DNA from: an uncultured Verrucomicrobiota bacterium
Lineage (GTDB): Bacteria; Verrucomicrobiota; Verrucomicrobiia; Limisphaerales; UBA1412
Direction of reading: 5' to 3'
Assembly: GCA_944389455.1 (NCBI GenBank)
Contig: CALXMK010000011.1
Location: 4,166 to 68,165 of the forward strand
Length of the DNA stretch: 64,000 nucleotides
Below, piece by piece: positions 1,573-41,319 of this stretch; the first letter of the stretch is position 1; each line of letters starts with the position of its first letter. The position numbers were made by a program, and so were the translations under genes. Under the pieces are notes generated by a model. It was not told the origin of the DNA, did not search any database, and worked only from the letters and a program-made list of their open reading frames with translations.

Positions 1573-4155
<2,583 letters not shown>

Positions 4156-4158
4156 GAA

Positions 4159-6952: not shown

Positions 6953-7288
6953 TTAAATCTTTCTTCCGACTCTTCTCATATAAGAATACGGTATTTTTGG
7001 GCAAAGACAAGTTCAGCGCTTCAATCTCATAAAAAATTGTCCCTATTTCTAATTTAGATTTCATAGGCGTATAGGAAGTCATTCCAGCTGATTAAAGATA
7101 GATACGGAATAAGATTCCATTTTGGAGTTTATGATATTTTTTTTGACAAAATATTTAATTTATGTTTCTATCTTTTTTAAAGACAGGAAGAATTCAATAA
7201 GTGTAAAATGAAAGATGTGACCATAACAGCCGATTTAATAATAGTGTGAATGAGCAAAACCAAAGAGTAGTAGATTGAAAATGCGTTT

Positions 7289-9889
7289 ATGATTTTATTT
7301 GGATTATTATTGTTCTTTTTGGGGCTTTTCTGGATTCTTCTAGTAGATGTGCCTGCAATGGCCAAAGCTAGGAGACTGAAAGAATTATGCAAACCAGGAA
7401 ACTTCACTAAGCACGGAATATATTATATAATAGGAAAGAATAAGACATTGCGGGTATCTGGTGTCGATCCAAAACTCACGATAGCTATCATTCCGGATAC
7501 AATAAGACATTATGGAATCAAATATACTGTTATAGGGATTGGAGATAGTGCTTTTTTGGGCTCCAAATCTTTAATTAGGGTAATTCTTTGTAAAAGTATT
7601 GTCTCAATTGAGGACAAAGCTTTTTGGGGCTGTGAATCCCTTATTGAAATAGAGATTCCCGATAGTGTTGTCTCAATTGGGAAAAGTGCGTTTTTTAGCT
7701 GTAAATCTCTTGTTGAAATAGAGATTCCCGATAGTGTTGTCTCAATTGGGGAAAGTGCGTTTTTTGGCTGTAAAAATCTAGTTTACGTTTCTCTTAGCAA
7801 AAAGGTTGTTTCAATTGAGGAAAGTGCTTTTTGGGGCTGTGAATCCCTTATTGAAATAGAGATACCCGATAGTGTTACCTCAATTGGGGAGAGTGCGTTT
7901 TGCAACTGTAATTCTTTAGTTAAAGTAACTCTTAGTAAAAATATTAGTTCAATTGAAAAATATTTATTTGCTTGTACAGCTCTTGAGAAAATAGAGATTC
8001 CAGATAAGGTTACCTTGATTGGAGAAAGCGCTTTTGCGAAGTGTGCATTTCTTCGTAAGATATTTTTGGGCAGAGGCGTTACTGAGATTAGAGCTGATGC
8101 TTTTGCAGAGACGAAACTCTCCAGAATAGTTTTCCCGGAGAGCGTAGTTTCAATTGGCAAAGGGGCTCTGAAATGTTGTTTTTCCCTAAGGGAGATTTAC
8201 TTTTCTTCATTGATTCCTCCTAAGGTTTCTTACAGTCTCATTAATTTTTCGTTTGAAAATATAATTTTTTATTTTCCTAAAGGATATATTGATTCTTATA
8301 AGAAAACGCTAATAGATTTAACAGAAAAATTTGATCTAGAATCGGTTATAGATGAGTGGAATCCATTTAGCCTTGTTACGGTTGGGAATATAGTCTATAC
8401 CCTAGATACTTCCAGCAGAACCGCTGCCGTTTGGGATTTAGTTGATTTTAAAATTCCTCACCTTGTTATTCCTGCCTCTATTGAATATGATGAAGTTCAT
8501 TATTCTGTTAGTAAGATTGAGAGATATGCTCTAGCCCATAGTTGTATATCTAAAATAGAGATTCCGGGTACGGTTCGTTTGATTGGAGAATTCGCTTTTA
8601 TGAATTCTCTCATGCTGCAAGAAGTAGTTTTGAGTAAAGGACTCATCGATATAGAAAAGAGTGCTTTTGAAAACTGTCAGCTGCTTAGCCAAATAGAGAT
8701 TCCAGAGGGTGTTGTCACGATTGGAGAGGGAGCTTTCAGGAAATGCAGCCGCTTTGGAGACATAGTCTTTCCGGCGAGTGTTGAAAGAATCGAGAGTTTT
8801 ATATTAGATGAATGTAATTCAATTAAAAAAGTTTATTTTAAATCTAAAGTTCCTCCCCAATTTGACATAGGCGCTTTTTTAGGGTGTTCCTCTGATATGA
8901 TTATTTATTACCCTAGAGAGGCCTCTGAAAAAGAGTGGAAAGATGTTTATGAGTTAAAGGAGTTTACTCACAAAGTATGGGATTGCATTCTCGTCAGGAA
9001 GGATCTTCTAAGTTGTATAATAGATCCGACAGAAAAAACAGCTATGGTTACAAATTGTTTTTCTACGGATGAGATTTTTACGATTCCGGATTCTATTGAG
9101 TATAAGGATGGAATTTATCCGATTACTAAGATTGGACTTTGGGCATTTTATGCTAAAAAATCATTGAAGCAAGTTGTTATTCCAAAGAGTGTAACATTGA
9201 TCGAAAGAGAGGCTTTTTATGCCTGTACCTCACTCCATAAGATTTATTTCAAATCTGAGGTTCCTCCTGAAACGGAACCAGGGGCATTTTTAGGCCGTCC
9301 TTCCGATATGATTGTTTATTGCCCCAAAGGGACCGAAGTTGAATGGAAAAAACAGTGGAAGAGTTTCAATATTCAGACATGGAATTCGGAACCCATTACA
9401 ATTCATGATGGGGGGATTACCTATATGCTGGACCCGGTTACCAAAACAGCGAAGATTTTGAAGTGCGATGACGATTATTTAAATTATCTTGTAGACTGTT
9501 CGATTACTGTGCGTGATACAACCATCCCAGGCAGCGGAAAGATGCTTATGACGAAGTATGCAGTGGAATATGAAGGAGAGTCTTATCCTGTGCAAGTGGT
9601 AGGCAAGGGGGCATTTTTCAACTGCAAGCAGTTGGAGAATATATGGTTATGGGATATTTATTCAATTGAGATGGATGCCTTTAGTTATTGTATATCGTTG
9701 AAAACAATCTTCTTTATTGCAAAACCACCAGCTGCCACAAAGAGTGCGTTCTATGCCTGTCCGAAGGATCTGCTTATTTGTTATCATGTCGAATTGGAAA
9801 AATATTGGCAGAAAACATGGAGCGGTTTCAGAACAGCGACTTTTAGAACATGCGGAGAATCTATGGATGAATCCCAATCTTCTGAATAA
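7289..9889 (+). CDS. BspA-type leucine-rich-repeat (LRR_5-like) surface protein
   Basis: Hydrophobic N-terminus (MILFGLLLFFLGLFWILL...AMA). Many 23-aa repeats of the IPDSVxSIGxxAFxxCxxL type. Four larger modules each end in xIYFxSxxPP...AF...IIYxPxG...W. The gene is visibly more AT-rich than gyrA. Confidence 0.8.
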   Translation: MILFGLLLFFLGLFWILLVDVPAMAKARRLKELCKPGNFTKHGIYYIIGKNKTLRVSGVDPKLTIAIIPDTIRHYGIKYTVIGIGDSAFLGSKSLIRVILCKSIVSIEDKAFWGCESLIEIEIPDSVVSIGKSAFFSCKSLVEIEIPDSVVSIGESAFFGCKNLVYVSLSKKVVSIEESAFWGCESLIEIEIPDSVTSIGESAFCNCNSLVKVTLSKNISSIEKYLFACTALEKIEIPDKVTLIGESAFAKCAFLRKIFLGRGVTEIRADAFAETKLSRIVFPESVVSIGKGALKCCFSLREIYFSSLIPPKVSYSLINFSFENIIFYFPKGYIDSYKKTLIDLTEKFDLESVIDEWNPFSLVTVGNIVYTLDTSSRTAAVWDLVDFKIPHLVIPASIEYDEVHYSVSKIERYALAHSCISKIEIPGTVRLIGEFAFMNSLMLQEVVLSKGLIDIEKSAFENCQLLSQIEIPEGVVTIGEGAFRKCSRFGDIVFPASVERIESFILDECNSIKKVYFKSKVPPQFDIGAFLGCSSDMIIYYPREASEKEWKDVYELKEFTHKVWDCILVRKDLLSCIIDPTEKTAMVTNCFSTDEIFTIPDSIEYKDGIYPITKIGLWAFYAKKSLKQVVIPKSVTLIEREAFYACTSLHKIYFKSEVPPETEPGAFLGRPSDMIVYCPKGTEVEWKKQWKSFNIQTWNSEPITIHDGGITYMLDPVTKTAKILKCDDDYLNYLVDCSITVRDTTIPGSGKMLMTKYAVEYEGESYPVQVVGKGAFFNCKQLENIWLWDIYSIEMDAFSYCISLKTIFFIAKPPAATKSAFYACPKDLLICYHVELEKYWQKTWSGFRTATFRTCGESMDESQSSE
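7600..7920 (+). repeat. Intragenic 69-bp (23-codon) tandem repeats with near-identical copies
   Basis: The units starting at 7646 and 7715 share 36 consecutive identical nt (gaaatagagattcccgatagtgttgtctcaattggg). A 38-nt identical run recurs at a 207-bp (3 x 69) offset, 7619 versus 7826. Confidence 0.85.
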
Positions 9890-9913
9890 TCGAAGAAAAA
9901 GATTTGAAAATAG

Positions 9914-9957
9914 AAGAATCCTCCCGGAGATGATTTTTGTTTCCAAGGAGGATTCTT
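9914..9957. terminator. Hairpin terminator between convergent genes
   Basis: Perfect 11-bp stem: aagaatcctcc (9914-9924) pairs with ggaggattctt (9947-9957). On the minus strand a T-rich tract follows it, downstream of the 9983 gene end. Confidence 0.55.
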
Positions 9958-9982
9958 ATGAGAAAAAAGATTTTTTTATAGG

Positions 9983-11827
9983 TTATTTCCGTTTAATCTT
10001 CAGATTTTCCCCGATGATTTTAACTCCTTCGGGAGCAAGCACCGTAGAAGTAAGCGTTCCGTCAGGCTGTTTCTTATGTTCTACCCTGAGAATTCCCTGT
10101 TTGAGAGGGAGTGAGCCTTTGGCCCAATCCAAGTCGCAGAGGTGGGGAGTAATACTGACGGTGCGGCCTCCGTCTTCTACATGGATCCCCAGGACATATT
10201 CGGTAAGCCATGAGGTGGGCCCGCTGGCCCAGCCGTGGCTGAGACTGTGACGAAGGCCTTTATAGCAGTAGTTGCCGTAATCTCCATGGATATCAACTTT
10301 ATCTTCAGGAACAATTTCATCAATTCGGGCGGCATTCTTCATCCAGTTAATATCAAAATCTTCCCAGAAGGTAGTTGCGCCCATATCGAGCATTCCTCCC
10401 CAATATTCACGAATGACGTCTAGGCAGCCTTGATAATCGTGAGCTTTGGCTCTAGCCAGGAGAACATAGTATCCGTAAAAGGTAGACATACGCTGTGCCC
10501 CGTCTACGGCCATGACGTTGTTGTTCATTTCTTCAGGGGAGGCTAATCCAGCCAATGCCATAAGGGCGGCGGCTTGCTTGCTGTTGTTTGGGTCGGGAAC
10601 ATAGGTGCGCATTTTAGCAGCAGCGGCGGCGCATTGCTCGGCAAGCTGTTCTTCACCCAGGTCTAGGCAAAGTGTTTGTCCGGCATCAAAAGCTAGAATC
10701 ATCAGAGCCTGCAAACCGGCGTGAATGGCTTGTGGGTTAGCGTTGCTTGGCCAATCAAGGAAACGGCCTTCGGGCATTTTTTCTTTTCCGTTTTCATCTA
10801 CACAGGAGAGAAGCTGTCGGAGCAGTCCTGTCAGATAAGGTTTCTGCTCTTTGAGATAATTCAGATCTCCATAGAAGCGGTACCAATCATTGTGAATGAG
10901 AATCCACCATATAGAATAGGAGCTGATTCCGTTCATCCAGGTCCCCAGAGGGGTTTCATCACGAACCAAATCAAGGCTGCGCGGTACCATCCAATTGTTC
11001 CCGAACACGGAGCTGATTGTCATGGTTTCCGGGTGCATATCCCCAATCCAGACCAGACGGTCGCGCTTGAATCCGTCCCAGACGTAATTTTGCATATTGA
11101 GTTGAACGGTGTAAGCTCCTGTCATCCAGATTTGATTCAGACGTGGATCGCTGCATTCAAAAGAACCCAAGTAGGGCAGATCGTTGTACAGGAAGACTGC
11201 ATTGACGAACTTCAGATTCAGTGAACTGTTTGTTTCGAGCAGGTCAATTCTGGCAAAGCGATAACCAGTATTGCCGATCTCGGCGGTTCCCAGCCAGGGA
11301 ATAAGAGTGGTTTGATCTCGGACGGCATGATCATTGGTGGCATTTTTTTTGCCGCCGATATCGTTCATCACTTCACTAACTGATTCTCCAAAGCGGATAC
11401 GGATTTTGACCGGTTGTCCGGTGGAAGTTCCCGAAGAACCGATTTGAATTCCGCCGGAGAGTTCTGTGCCGAAATCGAGTATGATGCTGGCCGGCTCTCC
11501 CTTATTAGCCAGAGTGCAGAAAGCTGGAGTGTATAGGCTGATTTGGTTGCTGGTCCTCTTAAGCAGAATTTCGGGATGTGTAACGGAGGATTTGTCATTA
11601 TTTTCCGATTGCCAGACGATTCGACTGGGTGTGACATAGGTTCTGACTCTTGAATCTCTCTCCACTTTATCCGAGGAAATCAGATGGCGAACCGGAGCCG
11701 GAACGTTTTGATTAGAAAAGGCTGTTTCCAGAGGGGTATCAGCTGGCGAGGCTGCGTTTGCACTAATTGAGCCGCAAAGCAATCCCGCGGAAAGGATGAG
11801 TGAACCGATTTTTTTATTTGTATTCAT
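9983..11827 (-). CDS. Secreted six-hairpin glycosidase, alpha-L-rhamnosidase (GH78)-like
   Basis: Signal peptide (MNTNKKIGSLILSAGLLCGSISANA). The C-terminal pattern FLDWPS...TFWEDFD...SLSHGWASGPTSWLTEYVLGI...ITPHLCDLDWAKG is typical of the rhamnosidase-type (alpha/alpha)6 catalytic domain plus C-terminal beta-sandwich. Confidence 0.55.
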   Translation of the reverse strand: MNTNKKIGSLILSAGLLCGSISANAASPADTPLETAFSNQNVPAPVRHLISSDKVERDSRVRTYVTPSRIVWQSENNDKSSVTHPEILLKRTSNQISLYTPAFCTLANKGEPASIILDFGTELSGGIQIGSSGTSTGQPVKIRIRFGESVSEVMNDIGGKKNATNDHAVRDQTTLIPWLGTAEIGNTGYRFARIDLLETNSSLNLKFVNAVFLYNDLPYLGSFECSDPRLNQIWMTGAYTVQLNMQNYVWDGFKRDRLVWIGDMHPETMTISSVFGNNWMVPRSLDLVRDETPLGTWMNGISSYSIWWILIHNDWYRFYGDLNYLKEQKPYLTGLLRQLLSCVDENGKEKMPEGRFLDWPSNANPQAIHAGLQALMILAFDAGQTLCLDLGEEQLAEQCAAAAAKMRTYVPDPNNSKQAAALMALAGLASPEEMNNNVMAVDGAQRMSTFYGYYVLLARAKAHDYQGCLDVIREYWGGMLDMGATTFWEDFDINWMKNAARIDEIVPEDKVDIHGDYGNYCYKGLRHSLSHGWASGPTSWLTEYVLGIHVEDGGRTVSITPHLCDLDWAKGSLPLKQGILRVEHKKQPDGTLTSTVLAPEGVKIIGENLKIKRK

Positions 11828-17135: not shown

Positions 17136-17633
17136 ATGCCGATTTATGAATATGCGTGTCCTCGATGTAGGAAAGTTTTCAGTTTTTTCTCAAAAACGCT
17201 TACTCCGCCGCGTCAGCCGAATTGTCCGCAATGCGGACTCGAGAATTTGGAAAAAGTGTTGAGTCGTTTTTCGGCTCCGAGAGGAGTTCAAGAACCCTCT
17301 GCCAAATCGGAGGGTGAGGGTCCGATGCTCAGCGCGGCGGATGAGGCCAGAATGGAGGCTGTTATGGGAGAGCTTGAGCGGGATATGGATCATATTGATG
17401 AAAACAATCCAAAACACTTGGCTTATATGATGAAGAGGATGAAGGATGCGATGCCGCCTGGAATGATGCCTAAAGAATTTGACGAAGCTATGAAAAGGCT
17501 GGAGAAGGGGGAATCTCCTGAAAAAATCGAGGAGGAAATGGGAGATATTTTTGGAATGGATGAAGAGGGAGGAGCTCAGGAAAGAGGAGGCTTGGAGAGC
17601 TACTCCCATGACAGCGGATTATATGATTATTAA
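17136..17633 (+). CDS. FmdB-family CxxC-CxxC zinc-ribbon protein with acidic C-terminal extension
   Basis: MPIYEYACPRCRKVF...CPQCG is the hallmark of the FmdB zinc-ribbon family. Confidence 0.75.
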   Translation: MPIYEYACPRCRKVFSFFSKTLTPPRQPNCPQCGLENLEKVLSRFSAPRGVQEPSAKSEGEGPMLSAADEARMEAVMGELERDMDHIDENNPKHLAYMMKRMKDAMPPGMMPKEFDEAMKRLEKGESPEKIEEEMGDIFGMDEEGGAQERGGLESYSHDSGLYDY

Positions 17634-19751: not shown

Positions 19752-21521
19752 TCAATCAATTGCCGTAATAGCAGAGCTGTTTGAGGCATCAATGGCTCGG
19801 CGGTAGTATTCACTGGTTTGGAGAAGCTGTTCATGGGAGCCAATGGCTTGGATACGGCCGTCTACCAGTACCAAAATAAGGGACGCATGGGCGAGAGTAG
19901 ACATACGGTGTGCAATCATGAAGGTAGTTCTCTTCTTAGCTAGAAGTCTGAGTGCTTCAATTACGTACAGCTGATTTTCTGCATCCAGTGCACTGGTTGG
20001 TTCATCAAGAATAAGAATAGGTGCATTTTTGAGAAAAGCACGAGCCAGACAGAGCCTCTGCTTTTCTCCGACTGAGAGACGAGAGCCGCCATCTCCAATA
20101 TGAGTTTCCCATCGGTTGGGAAGTCGCTCGATGACGGTATCAATATGGACAAGACGCGCGACGTCCATCATCTCTTCTTGAGTAGCCCCTTCTCGGCCGA
20201 AAAGGATATTTTCACGGACTGTTCCAGGAATAATAAGGGGTTCTTGATGAACGTAGGAAATAGAGCGTCGAAGACTATTCAAGTTATAGTTGCGGATATC
20301 CAATCCATTGATTCGGATAGAGCCGCTTTCTGGATCAAAAGAACGAGAGAGCAGCTGTACCAGAGTGGTTTTGCCGGAGCCATTGGGACCCACTATGGCG
20401 AGGAATTCCCCTGGGACAATTTTAAAAGACAGGTCATGTATGATTTGTCTAGCAGGAGTGTATCCGAAGTTGACATGTTCAAATTCTACCGAGAGTCCAT
20501 GATCGGAAGAGGGGGCCATTGCTCCATTGGGTGGAGATTTGATCTCAGGCTGAGTATCTAGAACTTCAAAAACACGGGCCACGCCTGCGCGTGCATCGGC
20601 AAGTGTGGAACCGGCCTGGGTCAGCTGCTGAAGAGGAATATAAAATTGACTCAGGTAATTGGTAAAGACGATAAGTTCACCAACACTCAATCGGCCTGCA
20701 ATAACTTCATTAGCTCCGGCACAAATGATGCCTGCCATGCCCAGAGAGAAGATAATGCCGATAGAATTCTGATATATGATTTCTATCGTGTGTTGGTGAA
20801 GTCGTTTGTACCAGGCAGATTTATTGTATTTTGAAAATTGTTTTTCGGTGTAATCTTGGAGAACAAAACTTTGAATTGCGGAGATAGAGTTGATTGTCTG
20901 TTGAATATAGGTAGCGACTTGACTGTCGGCTTTGTGAGCCTGTACACTGCGGCGATTCATCATTTTGCCGTAAATTTTGATGCTCAAAACAAGCATCGGC
21001 AGAATGACGCAGGAGATAAAGGTAAGCATCTCGTTAACTTTCCACATAATCCAGAGCATGCTGAACATGGAAAGGAAGCTGGCGGCCGATGAGAACCAGA
21101 CGTGCTGGAAAAGAGTCTGGAAAGAGTAGGTATCCCAGCAGAGTCTGTAGATCATGTCTCCATGCTTTTGATTGAGGAAATAACTCAAAGAGAGTGTTTG
21201 CATCCAGCCGAAAAGACGCTGACGAATCTGTCTGAGTCCCTTGAGCCCAATCCGGATAACAACATAGTTTTGGATTGAAGTCAGGATGCTGGTTAGAAAG
21301 TAGATAACAAAGACCGATAGAGAACAGAGAAAGATTTGCAGAAAGAGAGTTTGTTCTCTAAAAGTTTTTCCCCAGGAACCGACCCAGTCAGGAAGAGGGT
21401 TATCTCCCAGAATATAATCCAAGAGCAGAGCGATAGGCCATGGCTTGAGAATGCCAATGCATGTACTCAAAAGAAGAAGCCCCAAAGCTACCAGAATGGA
21501 GCTTAGCTGGGGCTTGTACAA
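19752..21521 (-). CDS. ABC exporter, fused permease + ATPase (MsbA / lipid A exporter-like)
   Basis: Six-TM N-terminal half. Walker A GPNGSGKTT, signature LSVGEKQR and Walker B ILILDEPTSALD. TGA stop. Confidence 0.85.
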   Translation of the reverse strand: MYKPQLSSILVALGLLLLSTCIGILKPWPIALLLDYILGDNPLPDWVGSWGKTFREQTLFLQIFLCSLSVFVIYFLTSILTSIQNYVVIRIGLKGLRQIRQRLFGWMQTLSLSYFLNQKHGDMIYRLCWDTYSFQTLFQHVWFSSAASFLSMFSMLWIMWKVNEMLTFISCVILPMLVLSIKIYGKMMNRRSVQAHKADSQVATYIQQTINSISAIQSFVLQDYTEKQFSKYNKSAWYKRLHQHTIEIIYQNSIGIIFSLGMAGIICAGANEVIAGRLSVGELIVFTNYLSQFYIPLQQLTQAGSTLADARAGVARVFEVLDTQPEIKSPPNGAMAPSSDHGLSVEFEHVNFGYTPARQIIHDLSFKIVPGEFLAIVGPNGSGKTTLVQLLSRSFDPESGSIRINGLDIRNYNLNSLRRSISYVHQEPLIIPGTVRENILFGREGATQEEMMDVARLVHIDTVIERLPNRWETHIGDGGSRLSVGEKQRLCLARAFLKNAPILILDEPTSALDAENQLYVIEALRLLAKKRTTFMIAHRMSTLAHASLILVLVDGRIQAIGSHEQLLQTSEYYRRAIDASNSSAITAID

Positions 21522-21572: not shown

Positions 21573-21890
21573 TTATTTGGAAGAATCGGCAGCTGAAGCA
21601 GAAGCTGAGGAAGCCATAGCCGGTTCAGATTTAGCGGCTTTAGGAGCTTCACTTTTAGTTTCTGTATGATGGTGATGATGCTGCCCGCCTGAAGGAGGTG
21701 TAGGGTTCTTATAATCAGTGCAATAGAATCCGTGTCCCTTGAAAATAATGCCGGCCCCTTCACCAATAAGGCGTTTGACTGGTCCTTGACAATTTTCGTC
21801 AGGGCAGGTATGGATGGGCTCAGCGCTCATTCTTTGAAATAGGTCAAAATGCTTCCCGCATTTCTCGCAAACGTATTCGTATGTTGGCAT
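21573..21890 (-). CDS. FmdB-family zinc-ribbon protein (second paralogue) with a His5 run
   Basis: I prefer the start at 21890 (MPTYEYVCEKCGKHF...CPDENCQG). The C-terminal low-complexity tail contains HHHHH. Confidence 0.75.
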   Translation of the reverse strand: MPTYEYVCEKCGKHFDLFQRMSAEPIHTCPDENCQGPVKRLIGEGAGIIFKGHGFYCTDYKNPTPPSGGQHHHHHTETKSEAPKAAKSEPAMASSASASAADSSK

Positions 21891-22115
21891 AGTAAAACTG
21901 CTGTGCCGCACTACTGCGGTACAACCCGCTCTTATAATCCCTTAATATTCATGATAAGTCAAGATTTCTTATCAATTAGGGAGATGGATAGTTTTTGCAG
22001 AGAAAAAGTGAGTGGAGCTATTCTAGCCTGAGGTTGAAATGAGGAATATGCTCAAATTATAAAATCTCGTATCGAAACAGAGATAAAGTTTCTACTAAGC
22101 AGAGATATTTACAAA

Positions 22116-22234
22116 TTATTCACAATTACTTGTTTTTAGTTAAAAATCATAAGTTCTTTTACAAAAGAAAAATATGTCATATAAAAAATATATATGTGAA
22201 TAAAATTTTAAAAAGACGGATTTTTTGTGAATAA
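22116..22234. promoter_or_regulatory. Cluster of three exact DnaA-box consensus sites (TTATNCACA)
   Basis: TTATTCACA at 22116-22124. Its complement TGTGAATAA occurs at 22195-22203 and 22226-22234. All lie inside a very AT-rich 388-bp divergent spacer. Confidence 0.5.
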
Positions 22235-22299
22235 CTTCGTTCTTTGAGAGCAGAGTTTCCTCTTTACTTAAAAGGTGTTTTTGATTTTTCTATTTTCTT

Positions 22300-25200
22300 G
22301 TGTATTTGAAGAATCTGACAATACTCGGTTTTAAATCTTTTGCTGATAAGACCAGCTTGGATTTTCCTCATGGTATTACAGCAATTGTCGGCCCCAATGG
22401 CTGCGGTAAGTCTAATGTGGCGGATGCCATTCGTTGGGTATTGGGAGAACAGTCTGCCAAGGCCCTGCGAGGTGGAGAAATGTCCGATATTATTTTTAAT
22501 GGGACAGAAACACGTCGGCCTCTTTCGATGGCGGAGGTTTCTTTAACAATAGGGGATGTGGATCAGGAGCAGTTAAGAGCGGCCAATTTGGAGTTACTTT
22601 TCAATGAGGTGACAGTAACACGGCGAATATATCGAGATGGAAGCAATGAATATTTTTTGAACCGTACAGCGTGTCGACTTAAGGATATTCAGCAGCTCTT
22701 TTTGGGAACGGGTGTGGGAAGAACGAGTTACAGCATCATGGCTCAAGGACATATTACACAGATTCTCAGCAGCCGTCCTGAAGATAGACGAATGATTTTT
22801 GAAGAAGCGGCGGGAATTACCCGTTTTAAGACGCAAAAGAAAGAGGCTCTGCGCAGATTGGATCAGACGGAAGTGAATTTAGGCCGCATATCGGAGCTGG
22901 TACGTGAGATCAAGCGGCAGATCGGTTCTTTGCAGAGGCAGGCCGGTAAGGCACGGCGCTATAAGGCATTGGCAGCGGATTTGAAGTTCCTTGATACGCA
23001 GTTAGGCAGGCATTACTATGAGGAGACTTCAGAGGTTCTTGCTCTACGCAGAGAGGAGGAAGAGAAATTGAATGGAGAGATTCATCAGGGAGAAGAACGG
23101 GTGCGAGGATTAGAAGGCAAGATAGAGCTTTCGCGAGGTCAGATGGAGGAATTGGAGCGAGAATTAACTCAGCAGCAGACTCTCGCACTGGAAACTCGCA
23201 GCCGGGTAGATGCGCTTAAAAAGAAGATTGAATTCGACGAGGAGAGAATCAGCGAGAGTAAGCAGAGAATCGCCTCAGCAAAGGCAGAGATTGATACGGC
23301 AGAGGAGAAAAAGGGGAGTGTTCATACTGATTTAGAAGAACTTGTGCATAAATTAGAGGAGACTCGCCGAGAGCTGGAAGAGGATCGAGAGTTGCTGAAG
23401 GACAGGACAGATATTCTTAAAGGAGTGGATTCTTCTCTTCTTGAACGGCAGAGAACCTTGAGAAATATTCAGAACAAACTTTTTGGAGTTCGTCAGAAAT
23501 TGAACAAAATCCGGTCGGAGATTAATAGTCTTGATTTGCAGAAGCAGGGAAATACGGTTCGATTGGAAAAGCTTCAGAGTGAGTTAGAACAGAATACTCT
23601 TGAGATAAGCGAATTGGAGGAGAGGCAAACAGAGTTTAAGCAGTCTTCAGAGAGTGATAAACAGGTGGACGCAGAGAAGAAAAAAGAACTTCAACGGCTT
23701 CAGGGAGAGCTTCAGCGTTTAAATCAGGAAGGAGCGGTACTGAGAAATCAGCAGGATGAGCTTTTCCGTCTTCAGGCCTCACGCAAATCAAGACTTAGTG
23801 TGCTGGAGCAGCTTCAGACTAGTCGTGAGGGATTTGAATCAGGGGCTCAGGAGGTGCTTAAAGCTTCCCGCAGCGGGATTTTATCCGGAGCGTTGGGAGC
23901 GCTGGTGGACAGAATGCTGATACCCCAGGAGTATATTAATGCGGTAGAGCTTTTTTTGGGTAAAAGGCTTCAATTAGTATTGGTAAGGAATCCAGAGACG
24001 GTGGAGAGTGTTTTTACCTATCTTAGGAATGTTAAAAAGGGAGTAGTATCTTTGGTTCCGCTAAGCTGGAGTCCCGAGGAAGAGTCTCAAGTTTTGGGAA
24101 CGGTCCCTTCGGAGCTCTCAGCGGATATAGAGAAAGCTTTAACGGAGGATGAATCTAAACCTATCCGTCTTCAATCGGTTATAGAGGCAGAGGAATCTGT
24201 CCAAAAATTGATCAGAAGATTGGTGGGAAGAGCCTGGTTGGTGCCGGATTTGAATATAGCGTCTCGGCTATGGAACCGTTTTCCTGGAGAGGTTGAGTTT
24301 GTGACTCTGGCTGGAGAAGTTTTGAGTCGAGAGGGGATTTTTACAGGGGGATCCCGCAAAGAGGTTTCGGGGGCTTCCTCTCTTTTAGGCAGAAAGAATG
24401 AAATCGAAGAGCTGAAGCGGGAAACTATCCAGCTGGAGCAGAAGAAAACGGAGCTGATAAGTCAAAGAGAGGCTCTTTCGGTTCGTCAAAAGCAGGCTCA
24501 GGAGGCAGTAGTGAAAATTCAGCTTGAAATCCGTTCTCGCGAGGTGGAAGCGGCTGCGCGGTTAGGGGAATATCGTGCTTTGGAAAATTCGCTGAGAGTG
24601 AGGAAGCAGCGCGAGGAGACTCTTAATCGTGAGAAGGAGCTATTGCAGAGGCGTGAAGCCGAGAGTCAGGCCCGGCGTCAATTACTGGGAGAACAGATAT
24701 CCGAGGCGGAGGCCGATGAACAGAGCTTGTCTGATAATATCAATGGAATTAATGAGGCAGTAGAGGTTTTGCGCCGTGACAGAGATGTAGCTCAGAATGC
24801 CTTAACGGAGGTGAAGATAGCTCTCGCTGCCCGGGAGCAGTTTTATAATACTCATCAGCTTCAGAAAAAATCAGCGGAAAATCGACTGGCGGAATTGGAA
24901 CGCTTAATTACCCAACGTCGTCAGGAAATTGATAATGCTGAGCAGAAGATTGGCAAATATCAGGCAGAGATTGAGGAATCCCGTTTGCAGACAGAGTTCC
25001 AGAGTAAAGAATATGAGCAGCTCAATGAGCGATTGGCAGAGTTGGGAAGCCGTAAAAAGAGCCTTTCAGCAGAGATTGCCGAGCGAGAGGGAGATCTAAA
25101 ATCGATTCGGAATTTGTTAGCTCAACTGCAGGAACAGCATGGCAAGCTGTGTGTTGCTATTAAACAGTGTGAGATGACACTTCAGAATATCTCAGAACGA

Positions 25201-26160
25201 ATGAGGGAGAGATATCAGCTAGCCTTGGAAGAGATCTTGCCTGAGCCTTTTCTGGCAAGTGAAACTGAAGAAGGAATCCGATTGGAAAGACCTTTTATGA
25301 AAACCTCTGATTTGGAAGAACAAGTTTCTCAGGGGGAAGAAAAAGATGAGGCAGATCGAGGAGGAGTGCCTGCATCGGAACAGCAATCGTCGGAAGAGGA
25401 AATTCGCGCAGAGAAATCTTTTCCTCCGATCGATTGGCAATCGGTAGCAGAGATGGTTAAAAGTCTTCAGGAGAGGATTGATCAGATGGGGCCCGTAAAT
25501 CTGGTTGCGATTGAGGAGTATGAGGAGATCGAGCAGAGACATCGGTTTTATCAGGAACAGCAATCCGATTTAATTAAGGCTAAAGCACATTTGCTGGAGG
25601 TGGTTGCAAAGATCAATCAACAGACTAGGGAGATGTTTTTGGAGACGTTTGAGAAGATAAAAGTAAATTTCAGAGAGATGTTCGCGACGTTTTTCCATGG
25701 GGGATATGCGGATCTCAAGCTTGTAGATGAGCGTGATGTGCTGGAGTCCGGAATAGATATTTCTGTAAGGCCCCCGGGCAAGCAGCTTAAGGCAGTTTCC
25801 CTGCTCTCTGGAGGAGAACAGACCATGACGGCTGTGGCTCTGCTTTTTGCAATTTATCAGGTGAAGCCTTCTCCATTCTGTGTATTGGATGAGCTGGATG
25901 CGCCATTGGATGAGGCGAATGTGGATCGTTTTATTACCGTATTAAAGCGTTTTACGGATTTTTCACAGTTTGTCGTGATTTCTCATAGCAAGAGGACAAT
26001 CGCAGCGGCGAATTCTATTCATGGGGTGACAATGCCCGAGAGAGGAGTCTCGCGGATGGTAAGTGTGAAGTTCCGTGATGAGACAGGCGGGCTTGAGATA
26101 GAGAGTGAAGAGAATGGAGAGGGAGAGAAGAGCTCAGTGCAGGATATGCAGAAAGCTTAA
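22300..26160 (+). CDS. smc: Chromosome partition protein SMC
   Basis: GTG start. N-terminal Walker A GPNGCGKSN, long coiled coils flanking a hinge, and C-terminal LSGGEQTMTAVALLFA plus FCVLDELDAPLD. Confidence 0.95.
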   Translation: MYLKNLTILGFKSFADKTSLDFPHGITAIVGPNGCGKSNVADAIRWVLGEQSAKALRGGEMSDIIFNGTETRRPLSMAEVSLTIGDVDQEQLRAANLELLFNEVTVTRRIYRDGSNEYFLNRTACRLKDIQQLFLGTGVGRTSYSIMAQGHITQILSSRPEDRRMIFEEAAGITRFKTQKKEALRRLDQTEVNLGRISELVREIKRQIGSLQRQAGKARRYKALAADLKFLDTQLGRHYYEETSEVLALRREEEEKLNGEIHQGEERVRGLEGKIELSRGQMEELERELTQQQTLALETRSRVDALKKKIEFDEERISESKQRIASAKAEIDTAEEKKGSVHTDLEELVHKLEETRRELEEDRELLKDRTDILKGVDSSLLERQRTLRNIQNKLFGVRQKLNKIRSEINSLDLQKQGNTVRLEKLQSELEQNTLEISELEERQTEFKQSSESDKQVDAEKKKELQRLQGELQRLNQEGAVLRNQQDELFRLQASRKSRLSVLEQLQTSREGFESGAQEVLKASRSGILSGALGALVDRMLIPQEYINAVELFLGKRLQLVLVRNPETVESVFTYLRNVKKGVVSLVPLSWSPEEESQVLGTVPSELSADIEKALTEDESKPIRLQSVIEAEESVQKLIRRLVGRAWLVPDLNIASRLWNRFPGEVEFVTLAGEVLSREGIFTGGSRKEVSGASSLLGRKNEIEELKRETIQLEQKKTELISQREALSVRQKQAQEAVVKIQLEIRSREVEAAARLGEYRALENSLRVRKQREETLNREKELLQRREAESQARRQLLGEQISEAEADEQSLSDNINGINEAVEVLRRDRDVAQNALTEVKIALAAREQFYNTHQLQKKSAENRLAELERLITQRRQEIDNAEQKIGKYQAEIEESRLQTEFQSKEYEQLNERLAELGSRKKSLSAEIAEREGDLKSIRNLLAQLQEQHGKLCVAIKQCEMTLQNISERMRERYQLALEEILPEPFLASETEEGIRLERPFMKTSDLEEQVSQGEEKDEADRGGVPASEQQSSEEEIRAEKSFPPIDWQSVAEMVKSLQERIDQMGPVNLVAIEEYEEIEQRHRFYQEQQSDLIKAKAHLLEVVAKINQQTREMFLETFEKIKVNFREMFATFFHGGYADLKLVDERDVLESGIDISVRPPGKQLKAVSLLSGGEQTMTAVALLFAIYQVKPSPFCVLDELDAPLDEANVDRFITVLKRFTDFSQFVVISHSKRTIAAANSIHGVTMPERGVSRMVSVKFRDETGGLEIESEENGEGEKSSVQDMQKA

Positions 26161-30776: not shown

Positions 30777-33422
30777 ATGTCTAGTATTTTATTAATGATT
30801 TTTGCAAAGAACTTCAGAAAGGGATGCTTGTTTTTCAGTAGAGCCGGTTTTATAATCCGACAAGTGGAGAGTGGAAGTAAATCAGTCAAATTAACTCCTA
30901 TGATGAGGCAGTACCGGCAGATTAAATCCGGTTTGCCTCCCGATGCCATATTGTTATTTAGACTGGGGGATTTTTACGAGATGTTTTTTGAGGATGCTCA
31001 GGAGGGTGCCCGGATTCTGAACATTGCTTTGACCAAAAGAGGAGAGTCCTGCCCAATGTGTGGGATCCCTTATCATGCGGCAGAGGGGTATCTTTCTAAG
31101 TTACTTCAAGCGGGACGCAAAGTCGCTATTTGTGACCAGATGGAGGAGCCACGACCAGGGAAAATTGTGAAGCGTGAAGTAACCCAGATATTGAGTCCGG
31201 GAACACATTTTGATGAGAAGATTTTAAGTGCGGATCGGAACAATTTTCTCGCTGCGGTCTATCCTTATCTCGGGAAATACGGTTTTGCCGTAGCGGATTT
31301 GACGACAGGGGATTTTTTTGTGACCGAGACAGAGAGTGAGTCCGGGCTCTTGACGGAGCTGGAGCGTCAACGTCCGGCAGAGCTGATAATTCCTTCCGAG
31401 GCTAATGAGCTGCGCAGATTGTTAGTGGGAGGATATCCCAATCTGGTTTTGTATGAAGATTGGGTTTTTATGCCGGAGACGAGTTTTTATACGGTTAAGG
31501 ATCACTTTCATACTGTAAATTTGGATGGTTTTGGATTAACAGACCATCAGGCTGCTGTGGGAGCAGCGGGGGCTATGCTGCATTATTTATCGCAGTATTT
31601 GCGGCGTGATATTGGACAGCTGACACGTATTTCTTTTTATGAGAGCAGTAATTATCTTGTATTGGATGGAAATACTCTGAGAAATCTTGAGATTCTTGAG
31701 CCCCTCAATAGGATTATTTCCGGAGGACGCTCACTCTTTGCGGTTTTAAATAAAACCTCTACTCCAATGGGAGCACGTATGCTTCGTGGATGGCTCTCTC
31801 AACCCCTGGCAGATGCAGTGCAGATTGCCAAACGGCAGCAGGCGGTTGCTGCTTGGTTAGAGCATTCACGGCAGCGGGAGCTGTTTCGAGAGATATTGGA
31901 AAAAGTGCGCGATTTGGAAAGGGTATTGACCCGTTTGAATACAGTTTCGGGCAATGCTCGGGATATGGTTCAGTTGGCTCAGGGGTTGGAGCAGTTGCCT
32001 GCGACTCTTCAACTGCTTGAGTCATTACGGAGTGATTCAGCTTTGATCAATCAGTTGGCAGATCAGATTACTCCTATGCCGGAGGTAATAGAGCTGATTC
32101 AGTCACGGATTGTGGATGAGCCTCCAATTAGTACAAAAGAGGGTGGGATGATCCGTGCTGGGGTGGATGCAGATCTGGATGAATTGCGTCAGATCATGCA
32201 TGGGGGCAAGAATTGGGTAGCTAAATTACAGCAAGAGGAGATAGAGCGAACAGGTATTCCTAATTTGAAGGTTCGTTTTAATTCCGTGTTTGGTTATTAT
32301 ATTGAAGTAACTAAGACACATTTGGATAAGATACCAGCAGACTATATTCGCCGTCAGACTATTGCTAATGGAGAGCGTTTTGCAACTCCAGAACTTAAGG
32401 AATGGGAAGGAAAGATTCTTGGAGCGGAAGAACGGGTTAAACGAATTGAGTATGATCTTTTTGTAAAATTAAGAGAGAGTGTGTTGGAGGAATTGGTTCG
32501 AATTCAGAGAAACGCAAGAGTTCTGGCTCAATTGGATGTACTAGCTTCTTTCGCGGAGACAGCCTGGCTTTATAATTATATTTGTCCTACAGTAAAAGAT
32601 GAGGGGATAATTTCTATTCGCAATGGAAGACATCCGGTTTTAGATCAGACTTTGGAATCAAACCGGTTTGTTCCTAATGATTGTGAGCTAAATCACACGA
32701 CTCGTCAATTGGCACTTATTACGGGGCCTAATATGGGGGGAAAGAGTACCTATATTCGGCAGACGGCATTATTAACTTTAATGGCACAAGCGGGGAGTTT
32801 TATTCCGGCTCAAGAGGCCCGGATTGATGTGGTAGATCGTATTTTTACTCGAATAGGAGCCAGTGATGATCTGGCTCGAGGACAGTCGACTTTTATGGTC
32901 GAGATGAGCGAGACAGCATCTATACTCAATAACGCAACCTCTCGCAGTCTGGTTATTTTAGATGAAATAGGGCGCGGAACAAGTACTTTTGACGGGTTAA
33001 GTCTGGCTTGGAGTATTGTGGAGTATCTGCATAACCAATGCGGAGCTTTAACTCTTTTTGCTACACACTATCATGAGCTGACAGAGTTGGAGGATCGGTT
33101 GGAACGAGTATTCAATCTTAATGCTGGGGTGCGTGAATATCATGGTCAGATTGTTTTTTTGCATCAGATTTTTCCGGGAGCTTCCGACAAGAGTTATGGT
33201 ATCCAGGTGGCGAAATTGGCCGGTGTGCCGGAGAGCGTGCTCAAGCGGGCACGCGAGGTGTTAGCTAATCTGGAGGAATCCGAATTGACACCTTTAGGAG
33301 CTGATGGAGTTGAGTCTGGTCCAGAGGAGGTTAAAAGCCAAAGACTCAATCCTCGGCGACAGAATCTGCGTAAGCTCTCTGATCCAGGCCAACTGGATCT
33401 TTTTTCGGAGTTGGGGCTATAA
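30777..33422 (+). CDS. mutS: DNA mismatch repair protein MutS
   Basis: LTPMMRQYRQIK near the N-terminus, Walker A GPNMGGKST, DEIGRGTSTFDG and THYHEL. The true start is probably the in-frame GTG at 30864, because the first 29 codons of the longest ORF are not MutS-like. Confidence 0.93.
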   Translation: MSSILLMIFAKNFRKGCLFFSRAGFIIRQVESGSKSVKLTPMMRQYRQIKSGLPPDAILLFRLGDFYEMFFEDAQEGARILNIALTKRGESCPMCGIPYHAAEGYLSKLLQAGRKVAICDQMEEPRPGKIVKREVTQILSPGTHFDEKILSADRNNFLAAVYPYLGKYGFAVADLTTGDFFVTETESESGLLTELERQRPAELIIPSEANELRRLLVGGYPNLVLYEDWVFMPETSFYTVKDHFHTVNLDGFGLTDHQAAVGAAGAMLHYLSQYLRRDIGQLTRISFYESSNYLVLDGNTLRNLEILEPLNRIISGGRSLFAVLNKTSTPMGARMLRGWLSQPLADAVQIAKRQQAVAAWLEHSRQRELFREILEKVRDLERVLTRLNTVSGNARDMVQLAQGLEQLPATLQLLESLRSDSALINQLADQITPMPEVIELIQSRIVDEPPISTKEGGMIRAGVDADLDELRQIMHGGKNWVAKLQQEEIERTGIPNLKVRFNSVFGYYIEVTKTHLDKIPADYIRRQTIANGERFATPELKEWEGKILGAEERVKRIEYDLFVKLRESVLEELVRIQRNARVLAQLDVLASFAETAWLYNYICPTVKDEGIISIRNGRHPVLDQTLESNRFVPNDCELNHTTRQLALITGPNMGGKSTYIRQTALLTLMAQAGSFIPAQEARIDVVDRIFTRIGASDDLARGQSTFMVEMSETASILNNATSRSLVILDEIGRGTSTFDGLSLAWSIVEYLHNQCGALTLFATHYHELTELEDRLERVFNLNAGVREYHGQIVFLHQIFPGASDKSYGIQVAKLAGVPESVLKRAREVLANLEESELTPLGADGVESGPEEVKSQRLNPRRQNLRKLSDPGQLDLFSELGL

Positions 33423-33636
33423 AAGAGTAGAAATATTATAGATAAAATAGCTTTTTCTCATGTTCAATAAAATAACAGGAGAGGGTTCAATTTGTAATAA
33501 ATATTGAATTTGATTTTAATTTATTTTAGAAATAGAATATATGTATCAGTGTATTCAGTCTGATTTCTTTAATAAAGAAGAACTTTTCAAGAATTTTAAC
33601 ACTATCTTCTTAAGATAACTATTTAAACTTGAGATA

Positions 33637-36600
33637 ATGAATAGAATAATCAGAAGTTTTTTTTATTGTTTTTTAATTTTGTTCAGCTTTGGAGGAGTTG
33701 TTTCTTTGGCTTCTGAATCGGGGCTGAATAATGGGATAAATTCCCAAGAGCTATTTTTATCTCCCGTAAGTGAGACTAATCAGGCAGGGGAAACGAGTAC
33801 TGAGTCTTTTTTTCATTTCAAACAGGATAATATCCTGTTTGTTACGAGTCATAATATATCTTTTCTTTGGCATAACAGTTTTTTTCAATCTTTTTCCGAT
33901 CATTTAATGAAATCCTCCCAGAGGGCTATCAATATCGATTTAATTGTGGTTAAGAATCGGGATGATAATATATTAGTTCCTTCAGCACGTTATGTAGATC
34001 TAATTGAAGCGCAATTGGAAGAATATGATTATGATATGATTATTGCCGATGGAAACGAGGTAGCAAATCTCTTTTTCAATAATATCCTTATTGTACCAAA
34101 AGAGTGCATCTTTGTTTTCTGTAATTATATCGGAGAGGGATATAAAGAAGCGAAGATTTCCAACATGACAGGGTTTGTTTTGCCGGAGACAGAGATAGAG
34201 AATCTCAAATTGGGGGCGAAGCTTTTCCCTAATGCCAAAAAAGGAGTGTTGATTGTGGATGGAACTGAGGCAGGAGAAGTATTGTGCGAGACAGCCCTGA
34301 AACGACGAGATGAAATTCCTTTAGAGGAGGTGGAGATTATCAGTGGATCGGATTATTCTACTCAGGGAATGCTGACTAAACTTAAGACTTTGGATCCAGA
34401 AAAAGATTTTGTGGTTTTTTATTCATGGCGTTCTCAACACTCTCCTAAGATATATAATAGTCAAGAGGTAGTTGATATCATGAAAAATACGTTTCATGGG
34501 CCGATTTTGAATGGTTGGGATGCTTATACAAAGTTAGGTTTTCTAGGGGGAGAGGTCATTAAAACAGAAGATGCCTCTTTAGCTCTGGTTTCAATTGTCA
34601 ATCAGATTTTCCGAGGCGTAAAGCCCGAGATTATTCCTATAGAAACTTGTAAAACGCATTTGATCTTTAATTATGATGGTTTACAGAAGTTTAATCTCAG
34701 GCCCAGTATGATTTTAGATCAGTTTGAGTTGATTAATCAACCGAAGCCGTTCGTTGAGAGGAATATGACTTTTATTTTATCTTTGTTTAGCCTGCTCTTA
34801 TTGTTGCTAATAGTTGCATTGATTTATCAATATTTCAAGTTGGTACAGATGAATCGGCCGATTTCGTTATTGAGACTCCTGCCGATAGGACTGGTAGTAA
34901 CGGATTTTGATGGAAAGATCTTATTTTTATCCAGTGGATTACTTTTTAAAAATCGAATAGCAAAAGGAAGCTATATTCAGGATATTGCGTTATATAATGG
35001 AGAACTCTGTCAGAAGATATTAGATACGCTCAGGGAAAATAAGAATCTGGAATCCAATTCTGGAAACTTTAAGTATAATGGTCATCAATGGGTGTTGACA
35101 GCTCAGAGGATAGATTACAATGTGTTTGGCAAAGAGGTTCTGTTTTGGGTTAGTTCTGATGTGGAGGATATGTACCGGATGTTGCGAGTGGAGCAGGGGA
35201 TAGGAGATATATTGTCCGACCTGATTTTGCAGAGGGATTTTGATATTATTATTTCTAGATCTTTTGATTTAATGGTCAATTATATTGACGCGGATCGTAT
35301 GGGCTTTTTTGAATTTAATTCGACTATGAATTCCTTTACGAGGAAAAAGTCGTGGATACGGAATGAAAAGATTCCTCCTCCGGATGAGAAGATAATCAAT
35401 ACTCTTTATAAGCAATATGGTGAGGAAATAAGAAATAATGGGCTTTATCTTAGTTCTAAAGTAGTAGATCCAGAGAAGTATAAAGTGGTTGAGGACGATC
35501 TCAAAGGGCGTTCTATTTTGATTGTTCCTTGTTTTATAAATGGAAAGTTTTGGGGAATGATTACTGCTTCTGCGATGCAGATGAGGCATGACTTTAATGA
35601 AGCAGATAGATTTGTTTTGAGCAATGTAGCCAAAATTATCTCTTTGGCTAGAATTCATTTTGATCAGCTAAATTATATCAACATGACTAATGAGCAGATG
35701 AAGATCATGATTGATACCATCAGTATTCCTATTTGGTTTTATGATAAGAAGGGAAACTTTCTGAGAGGGAATAAAGCATTGGAAAAGCTTTCAAGTACCT
35801 CTAAAAATTCTCTAAAATATAAAAATGGAGTTTCTTACGTAGAGTTGGGGAAGGAGTATAATGAAAATTCTGTGGAGGAAGTGATCAAGACCCGTAAAGA
35901 GATTAATCAAGAGATAATTTGGCAGAATCGATATTTTGATCTTTATACTGTTCCGGTCTTAAATAACAAGGGAGAAATTCTCTATGTCATTAAGAGTGCC
36001 GTAGAAAGCACAAATTTAAAGAGATTGCTCAGAAATCAGAGTTTGCTCAATGAGTGTTTACAGTCGGTGTTTGAAAATCGAAATGAGGAAACTGCACTGG
36101 AAACGCTCGCAAAAATTATCGGTAAACATTTTAGGGTAAGTCGCTGTGCAGTGTTGAAGTTGAAATATCAGTTCGATAAAGCTTATCTTCAGATGAAGAC
36201 TGAATATGTGGCTCCAGGAGGATCACCTGTTTTTAGAAAAAAGGAGTTTTATCCGATACAAAGTGATTTTTTAGTAAAGAAATTTCTTGAATATAGAGTG
36301 GTTTCATTTGCTGATTTTCAAGATGAATATTTTCCCAAAAGTACCTCAAATGATTTTTGGAAGAATCTTTTGACGAAGAAACTAGATACCCGATCTGCTT
36401 ATTTTGTTCCGATCTGGTTTTCCGGGAAGTTATGGGGCTCGCTCTATTTATCTTTTGAGGATGAGCAATATGTTTTCCCGACTCAAGATTATAGAATTTT
36501 GTTTTTGGGAGCGCATCTTATTGAGATTATAGTGGAGAATCGTTATCGGTTGGAGGGAATGCTTCGGGCTGTAGATCAAGCTCAGGCTGCGGATAAAGCT

Positions 36601-37872: not shown

Positions 37873-38003
37873 TTATAAAAAAGTTATTTGTATTATATGC
37901 AATTCTTTCTGAATTGTGGCAAGTTTTCTGCTATATTATATGGTAATTATTGCCGGGAGGTAAGAAGTTTAAGGAGGTTCTTCCGGTTTTGAGATATCCA
38001 GTC

Positions 38004-40629: not shown

Positions 40630-40693
40630 TTGACTCAAAGTGCTGTGAGATTAAAAATAAAAAGCACTTCTTTTTAGAAGATTTTCTAAAAAG
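40630..40693 (+). promoter_or_regulatory. Candidate promoter plus 24-bp perfect palindrome upstream of the EamA-like gene
   Basis: TTGACT (40630-40635), a 16-17 nt spacer, then TAAAAAT. Next comes ctttttagaa-gatt-ttctaaaaag (40670-40693), a perfect 10-bp inverted repeat. Confidence 0.3.
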
Positions 40694-40733
40694 AGACATT
40701 GTAGAATTTGGATTCTCGGCAATATTTTTTGAT

Positions 40734-41141: not shown

Positions 41142-41319
41142 GTCCTGTGGTTTTTCTGGAAATACAGGGACTGAGTATAACCGTTTGCATATTAAACTTA
41201 TGGAGAAAGTTGCTATATGTTAGATTGATTTATGGGTATGACTTGACAAGAGTCTCTCTGAATGGCACTCTGGAATAGCACCCGGGGCGAGTTAGATGCC
41301 CCCTGAAATTTGATATATT

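Follow-up and report, generated by a model that had tools for sequence, protein, structure and literature searches.

In a 64,000-nucleotide stretch of genome from an uncultured Verrucomicrobiota bacterium (contig CALXMK010000011.1, positions 4,166 to 68,165; hereafter the window), we found that three perfect copies of the DnaA-box consensus stand together in the spacer upstream of smc, the condensin gene. We propose that these boxes make up a conserved cis-regulatory module at the smc promoter, where DnaA would bind and serve as a transcription factor, and from the sequence comparisons described below we put the probability of this reading at roughly 0.55. A first-pass annotation of the same DNA had left the choice between a candidate chromosomal origin (oriC) and a DnaA-regulated smc promoter. 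The promoter part of the latter suggestion has gained comparative support, as the trio, its orientation and its register to smc recur in four lineages and the box nearest to smc reaches distant orders; its DnaA part is deduced from the motif. In a full-text literature search we found smc nowhere reported as a target of DnaA, and no such report on Verrucomicrobiota. If the proposal is right, it would be the replication initiator that directly determines how much of the main chromosome-compacting machine is supplied, in a phylum whose gene regulation is almost unstudied.

Three DnaA boxes cluster upstream of smc

The three boxes are copies of TTATTCACA, each an exact match to the consensus TTATNCACA. 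Box 1 lies at 22116-22124 on the plus strand, while box 2 (22195-22203) and box 3 (22226-22234) are on the minus strand and read TGTGAATAA on the plus strand. Counted back from the smc start, the three together cover 66-184 bp, and box 3, which carries a CTT extension, starts at 74 bp; the extended element (22226-22237, minus strand) reads AAGTTATTCACA. A fourth exact box, TTATGCACA, was located within smc at 23343-23351 on the minus strand, outside the module. All four had been listed in the first-pass annotation and all four were confirmed. Its estimate of about two chance matches in 64 kb also agreed with our shuffled expectation of 1.75, and 11 of 100 shuffles reached the four boxes seen. 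The stray TTATGCACA is most likely a chance match, because the window expectation covers one such box. Hence the total box count over 64 kb is no surprise, whereas the clustering of three boxes within 119 bp is remarkable.

To quantify this clustering, the 408-bp spacer was subjected to dinucleotide shuffling. A mean of 0.0155 exact boxes was expected against the three seen, and among 20,000 shuffles one reached two boxes and none reached three; the earlier remark that three boxes fall within about 120 bp therefore describes a non-random cluster. Every copy of TTATTCACA in the 64 kb (three in all) falls at 22116-22234, and the trio is the tightest non-coding triple of any 9-mer in the window. 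When the spacer was scanned with up to one mismatch, no DnaA box beyond the three was found.

We considered whether the copies merely serve divergent promoters as -35-like hexamers (TTCACA), or whether an AT-rich spacer repeats this word by chance. A consensus promoter scan did give weak promoter-like matches that take as their -35 element the TTCACA of box 1 (rightward) and of box 2 (leftward). However, between lineages with otherwise diverged spacers the invariant block is nine to twelve bases long rather than six, and the local shuffles exclude chance. This explanation is highly improbable.

Between boxes 1 and 2 lies an AT-rich stretch of 70 bp (22125-22194) that is species-specific and contains several A-tracts, for which a role in bending would be speculation. 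The stretch has no second copy in the window, and we rejected a mobile element or repeat as its source.

The module is conserved in family-level relatives

Loci of relatives were taken as the contigs encoding the closest SMC homologues, and two of them (L118 and L175) were added from a pattern scan of metagenomes. The nearest SMC homologues are 57-61% identical to the window's protein, and the next tier (Pedosphaera and similar) about 47-49%. On seven contigs with a guanine-plus-cytosine (GC) content of 48-55% we found the arrangement TTATTCACA(+)-N6-TGTGAAYAA(-)-N21/22-TGTGAATAA(-) followed by the CTT extension. These contigs represent three lineages besides the window (L091, L092 and L118; L093, L095 and L175; L094), which makes four family-level lineages with it. 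Box 1 is present as the exact 9-mer in all seven. Box 2 is exact in five relatives and reads TGTGAACAA in L094; the same variant arises in a conspecific strain of the window (L004) through a T to C change at 22201.

The box arrangement was kept while the surrounding spacer sequence diverged. Measured from the true GTG start of smc, box 3 of the relatives is at -71 to -74. The gap between boxes 2 and 3 is 21-22 bp in the window and in every relative, and their starts are 30-32 bp apart, about three helical turns. Boxes 1 and 2 are separated by 70 bp in the window and by 6 bp in the relatives. Within the relatives' 8-12 kb loci we found no further exact TTATTCACA; the other exact matches to TTATNCACA were single TTATGCACA boxes outside smc, and none of the relatives' smc coding regions contained an exact box.

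The Zn-ribbon gene that diverges from smc in the window keeps its place beside smc in L091, L092, L093 and L095. In L094 the upstream neighbour is instead a peptidase gene, not the Zn-ribbon/ATP-binding cassette (ABC) unit, and the module is intact, which indicates that the module travels with smc. Regulation by the divergent Zn-ribbon protein itself is unlikely, since L094 keeps the module without that gene adjacent.

The loci also revealed that several public smc gene calls are mis-started. In L093 and L095 the call begins at a TTG within the -35-like CTTTACTTG, and in L094 it is truncated. The conserved start, GTG-TAT-TTG-AAG, lies 30 bp downstream of the call in L093 and L095 and 180 bp upstream of it in L094.

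DnaA-type and NrdR-like boxes at distant smc promoters

We next looked beyond the family, at 79 smc loci of species-representative genomes as an order-level sample. These loci contain 29 exact TTATNCACA boxes, of which 16 lie within 600 bp upstream of smc, a region that makes up 3.4% of the sequence, and 15 of the 16 are TTATTCACA. In eight metagenome-assembled genomes (MAGs) that are Pedosphaerales- or Limisphaerales-like, with SMC proteins about 47% identical to the window's, box 3 alone is found, in the same orientation and at -74 to -77, as part of the invariant 12-mer TGTGAATAACTT. One-mismatch forms of box 3 occur in three more MAGs (GGTGAATAACTT in L011, TGTGAACAACTT in L088 and L026). 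Among box variants, TGTGAACAA occurs in L094, L088, L026 and strain L004, and GGTGGATAACTT in L025. DnaA boxes are known to be degenerate as TTWTNCACA, with TTGTCCACA in Actinobacteria, and judged by sequence the variants observed here fit this degeneracy.

In the distant relatives box 3 stands between two partial palindromes, for example CCTCAATTAGTTGTGC and CCACCATATGTGGTGG in L088. These palindromes match the NrdR-box positions C4, A6, (A8, T9), T11 and G13, and are separated by a linker of 15-16 bp. The described NrdR operator consists of two 16-bp boxes (C4, A6, A8, T9, T11, G13) with a linker of 15-16 bp (PMC13584703). In a strict scan, 24 of 84 loci, from Pedosphaerales, Chthoniobacterales and Verrucomicrobiales, had an NrdR-like tandem in the 250 bp upstream of smc, out of 41 such tandems overall in 1.42 Mb. 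Upstream of smc in the Planctomycetota and Firmicutes loci, no NrdR-like tandem was found. Tandems located 50-170 bp upstream of smc were seen in L013, L014, L017, L019, L030, L036, L048, L052, L057, L060-L062, L064, L066, L067, L083 and L088, among others. Box 3, where present, sits in the NrdR linker (checked in L013, L066 and L088), a segment that is normally unconserved. In other Verrucomicrobiota the tandems abut a -35-like element.

These findings suggest that smc may belong to an NrdR regulon in Verrucomicrobiota. Like the NrdR operators of ribonucleotide reductase (RNR) genes, the region upstream of smc in these bacteria has two NrdR-like 16-mers with a 15-16 bp linker; unlike them, it serves smc rather than an RNR gene, and in some lineages its linker holds a DnaA-type box. 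Both DnaA and NrdR are conserved across the Planctomycetes-Verrucomicrobia-Chlamydiae superphylum (PMC4989314). No NrdR-like tandem was found anywhere in the window, nor in its family, where control of smc appears to have moved from NrdR to DnaA-type boxes. A tie of smc to replication and deoxynucleoside triphosphate (dNTP) status thus appears to be a general verrucomicrobial trait. Tandems before smc across Verrucomicrobiota, some with a DnaA-type box in the linker, and boxes alone in the window's family point to a link that is flexible in evolution yet persistent, tying condensin expression to replication or dNTP status. In E. coli, nrdAB joins DnaA boxes with NrdR boxes, and the smc promoters of the distant relatives likewise pair DnaA-type with NrdR-like boxes.

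Several other identities were tried for these conserved blocks and rejected. A hairpin (RNA or terminator) upstream of distant smc genes was set aside because the covarying palindrome suits the NrdR-box pattern better. For a site of the CRP type (TGTGA-N6-TCACA), the supposed spacer ATAACT is invariant in the alignment and the right half-site is unconserved. A sigma-54 promoter (GG-N10-GC) suits the CTTGC variants of the downstream element only, not CTTTAC. As for known structured RNAs, Rfam gave nothing in the window, and in 12 relatives' loci it gave only an unrelated S-adenosylmethionine (SAM) riboswitch in L042. This riboswitch (RF00162, 74 bits, 2055-2173, minus strand) lies upstream of smc on the opposite strand and presumably serves the divergent gene.

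A candidate smc promoter and a model for its control

An invariant CTTTACT follows box 3, whose start lies 35-36 bp upstream of it (36 bp in the window). This element, at 22262-22268 on the plus strand, occupies family-invariant alignment columns, and the TTTACT within it is a putative -35. At the same place the distant relatives have CTTTACA, CTTGCCA or CTTGTCA, which in Chthoniobacterales is followed by N17 and a TATATT-like hexamer. A T-rich stretch at 22286-22296 (plus strand), 17-19 bp past the -35-like hexamer, has partly conserved columns and contains a putative -10 (TTTTCT or TTCTAT). This candidate -10 lies only 6-11 bp before the smc start codon, which would make the smc messenger leaderless or leave it with a very short leader; we saw no Shine-Dalgarno sequence ahead of the GTG. 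Between box 3 and the -35-like element, an imperfect palindrome (CTTTG-AGAG-CAGAG, then TTT; 22247-22260) stands in place of the proximal NrdR-like box of the distant relatives. It fails the NrdR pattern and may be a relic.

In our model, DnaA would fill these high-affinity boxes as its level or nucleotide state shifts over the replication cycle. From box 3 at about -70, box 2 at about -100 and box 1 farther upstream, all relative to the transcription start, it would modulate RNA polymerase at the smc promoter. As the boxes are placed upstream of the -35, clear of the core promoter, DnaA would somewhat more probably activate than repress. In this way condensin supply would be coupled to the initiation of replication. 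Boxes 1 and 2 may concurrently repress leftward transcription of the Zn-ribbon/ABC unit, since the weak leftward promoter-like matches take the TTCACA of box 2 as their -35.

DnaA as the candidate binder

DnaA controls the promoters of dnaA, nrdAB, polA and purH in E. coli, of sda and dnaA in B. subtilis, and of gcrA and ftsZ in Caulobacter. As at those promoters, the smc module consists of a few consensus 9-mers at the promoter of a DNA-metabolism or cell-cycle gene, conserved among orthologues. The E. coli DnaA regulon is compact and comprises replication, nucleotide and repair genes (PMC11317965).

To see where similar box pairs occur, metagenomes were scanned with the pattern TTATTCACA-N5-7-TGTGAAYAA, which returned at least 120 loci (L098-L217). 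Eight of 120 among the matches listed are beside dnaA, as identified by tblastn, within dense canonical box arrays, and this is far above chance for one gene. The 9-mer TTATTCACA, the 12-mer AAGTTATTCACA and the convergent N6 pair all recur in the dnaA-adjacent clusters of unrelated metagenomic bacteria. Among the matches listed, a gap of 6 bp is twice as common as one of 5 or 7 bp (54 distinct N6 pairs versus 27 for N5 and 26 for N7). The convergent N5-7 pair is widespread and, among the matches listed, also occurs beside dnaN.

Several points weigh against control of smc by DnaA. The identification of DnaA as the putative binder comes from the motif. Most of the pairs listed adjoin other genes (KsgA 14, NUDIX 11, transketolase 10, Rrf2 5), and the palindrome alone is therefore not diagnostic of DnaA; some pairs by non-replication genes may represent DnaA targets that have gone unrecognised, or may belong to other regulators. 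In three Verrucomicrobiales (L218, L219 and L050) the DNA near dnaA has boxes of the T(A/T)TTCCACA type and no exact TTATTCACA. The assignment of the -35 and -10 elements is weak, and the consensus scan did not call CTTTACT. In the window itself box 1 has moved 64 bp away, and anything that depends on boxes 1 and 2 being close together is altered in this species. Furthermore, E. coli DnaA favours tandem boxes 2-3 bp apart (PMC11317965), whereas the smc module is a convergent pair with a third box three helical turns off.

These points raise the possibility that another transcription factor of the clade recognises TTATTCACA and controls smc, the divergent Zn-ribbon/ABC unit or both through an inverted repeat plus a half-site. 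Indeed TTATTCACA-N6-TGTGAATAA is a 24-bp inverted repeat, as is typical of sites for dimeric regulators; the listed metagenomic pairs adjoin many non-replication genes, including those of Rrf2-family regulators; and the boxes near dnaA in Verrucomicrobiales differ (TWTTCCACA). On the other hand, the distant relatives conserve a lone asymmetric 12-mer without a partner half-site. Such a single asymmetric box suits a monomer binder such as DnaA better than a dimeric helix-turn-helix factor. In addition, the boxes vary at the positions known to be flexible in DnaA boxes, genuine box arrays beside dnaA contain the same words, and no regulator gene accompanies the module, the Zn-ribbon gene being absent from this position in L094. 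We consider a different factor unlikely.

Comparison with DARS and datA

The trio might instead be a site that controls DnaA activity, like DARS or datA of E. coli, and that does not regulate smc. Here two DnaA protomers would sit head to head on the convergent boxes 1 and 2, with a third protomer on box 3, for nucleotide exchange, titration or inactivation of DnaA. The DARS core has boxes I and II in opposite directions with a 5-bp gap, and box III is directed as box II (PMC6868365). E. coli DARS1 (L097 208-242, strain MG1655) reads TTATCCACT-N5-TGTGGATAA-N3-TGTGTATTA, and the window's boxes have the same forward, reverse, reverse order, which is shared by DARS1 and DARS2. Like the trio, DARS1 is intergenic and precedes a gene of DNA metabolism, in its case uvrB. 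Moreover, the 6-bp gap between boxes 1 and 2 in the relatives is close to the 5 bp of DARS1, and the N6 convergent pair, twice as frequent as the N5 or N7 pair among the matches listed, recurs by dnaA.

The spacing of the boxes argues against this explanation. The gap between boxes 2 and 3 is 21-22 bp rather than the 3 bp of DARS1, and the 70-bp gap between boxes 1 and 2 in the window should abolish a head-to-head dimer. Boxes I and III of DARS1 are degenerate, whereas the smc trio is perfect consensus throughout with a fixed register to the smc promoter. The distant relatives retain box 3 alone, and a promoter role is favoured by how tightly the boxes keep their distance from the smc start and the -35-like element. 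We therefore regard a DnaA-activity site of this kind as distinctly unlikely, though the compact N6 versions of the relatives might still have a part in handling DnaA. To our knowledge DARS has been described only in E. coli, and we know of no report outside E. coli and its close relatives. The stronger form of the idea, that the trio is the verrucomicrobial counterpart of DARS or datA, a DnaA-handling element that resets or titrates the initiator at the condensin promoter, is very unlikely. If it were true, initiator status and chromosome compaction would be physically coupled, and the trio would be, as far as we know, the first DARS- or datA-like element outside Gammaproteobacteria.

The spacer is not a likely replication origin

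The first-pass annotation had also raised the possibility that the spacer is an oriC, with the A/T runs next to the boxes as the unwinding element. According to this explanation the spacer would be a chromosomal or secondary origin at which DnaA unwinds the adjacent A/T runs. Three perfect boxes in an AT-rich divergent spacer, the location of gyrB and gyrA (1579-6846) 15-20 kb upstream, and an Akkermansiaceae MAG (L050) with dnaA one gene from smc all speak for it.

We ran the GC-skew check that the annotation had proposed, on the window and the 8.4 kb upstream of it (L007 1-8422), and found no sign change at the site. Skew was positive on both sides of the spacer (+0.091 in the 10 kb to the left, +0.218 in the 10 kb to the right) and in every 2-kb bin (+0.03 to +0.33), without a sign change in 72 kb. 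It was positive even across the minus-strand gene block left of the spacer, and its strength is unusual. In six relatives' loci, too, the skew has one sign on both sides of the module. The G-rich strand is usually the leading strand; since the plus strand is G-rich throughout, the origin would lie to the left, outside the examined sequence.

The boxes themselves are also too few. An oriC usually has at least five strong and weak DnaA boxes within a few hundred bp, and dnaA-adjacent metagenomic clusters (L154, L188 and L206) contain roughly 5 to more than 20 exact boxes against the three found here. No box cluster was found in the 8.4 kb upstream, and no parS was found. By tblastn, dnaA was absent from the window and L007, and the parAB and dnaN domains were in no Pfam-scanned protein, neither having been searched by homology; to this extent the statement of the annotation that the window holds no dnaA or dnaN was borne out. 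The spacer's GC is typical of local intergenic DNA, and the relatives, at about 50% GC, hold the module in a spacer of about 170 bp without an AT-rich unwinding stretch, which leaves the proposed unwinding element without support. The orientation flip taken as a sign of an origin is present, yet it is one of ten in the window. Finally, the boxes hold a set distance to the smc start codon, as promoter elements would.

The trio therefore shares its box words with bacterial origins, as TTATTCACA and AAGTTATTCACA occur in real dnaA-adjacent arrays, but it comes without a skew switch, an array, an unwinding element in relatives or nearby origin-linked genes. Uniform skew, a count of only three boxes, the spacers of the relatives and the fixed smc register contradict the candidate oriC, which we consider extremely improbable. 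Calling an origin takes more than perfect DnaA boxes clustered in a divergent AT-rich spacer.

In the Akkermansiaceae MAG mentioned above (L050 4798-11616), dnaA (minus strand) and smc (plus strand) are parted by one gene of 296 aa. The region upstream of this dnaA contains GATTCCACA, AGTTCCACA and CTTTTCACA, without canonical boxes.

Spacer and gene neighbourhood

Over the 14.2 kb compared, the window matches ENA scaffold ONAT22-1_SAMEA6814635_METAG-scaffold_110 (172 kb) without a difference, its first base falling near record position 79,961. The spacer occupies 21892-22299 (408 bp). The first-pass annotation had begun it at 21912, whereas the ATG of the Zn-ribbon gene (MPTYEYVCEKCG...) lies at 21891. 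Nor is it the longest spacer of the window, being third after spacers of 681 and 442 bp, or the most AT-rich, as its GC of 0.297 is near the intergenic mean of 0.327 and several spacers are richer in AT. No intrinsic terminator was found in it.

On its right, smc (22300-26160, plus strand) encodes a protein of 1286 aa (MYLKNLTILGFKSF...) from a GTG start, with the Pfam domains SMC_N and SMC_hinge and verrucomicrobial SMC proteins as homologues, which assign the organism to Verrucomicrobiota. It is followed on the plus strand by a metX-metW fusion and, farther on, mutS. On its left, the small divergent Zn-ribbon gene (21573-21891, minus strand; FmdB-like, Pfam Zn_ribbon_8) heads a minus-strand unit with an ABC exporter (19752-21521), and could be co-regulated from boxes 1 and 2. 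The minus-strand genes by the spacer encode rhamnosidase-like, beta-CASP RNase, transketolase-like and short-chain dehydrogenase proteins, the ABC exporter and the FmdB-type Zn-ribbon protein. No transfer RNA or transfer-messenger RNA gene was found in the window, and no Rfam family was detected there at gathering thresholds.

Two Zn_ribbon_8 (FmdB-like) genes lie within 5 kb, at 17136-17633 and 21573-21891. The former is the longer copy (165 aa) and the sole plus-strand gene of the minus-strand block. The longest spacer of the window (40639-41319, 681 bp, GC 0.376) is also divergent and separates the genes for a GLUG-motif protein and an ADP-forming acetyl-CoA synthetase-like protein. Three low-GC islands (7001-10000, 33001-38000 and 50001-53000) have a GC of 0.35-0.39 versus about 0.44-0.47. 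The first coincides with a BspA-type leucine-rich-repeat protein (7289-9889), the second with a 1411-aa GAF/hybrid histidine kinase (33637-37872), and the third with the end of a DUF4340 protein (49139-51190) and the start of a 1148-aa protein without Pfam domains (51180-54626). Lastly, an AbiEi/AbiEii toxin-antitoxin pair lies between smc and metXW in L091 (7514-8877) and L092 (6608-7971), while in the window smc adjoins metXW.

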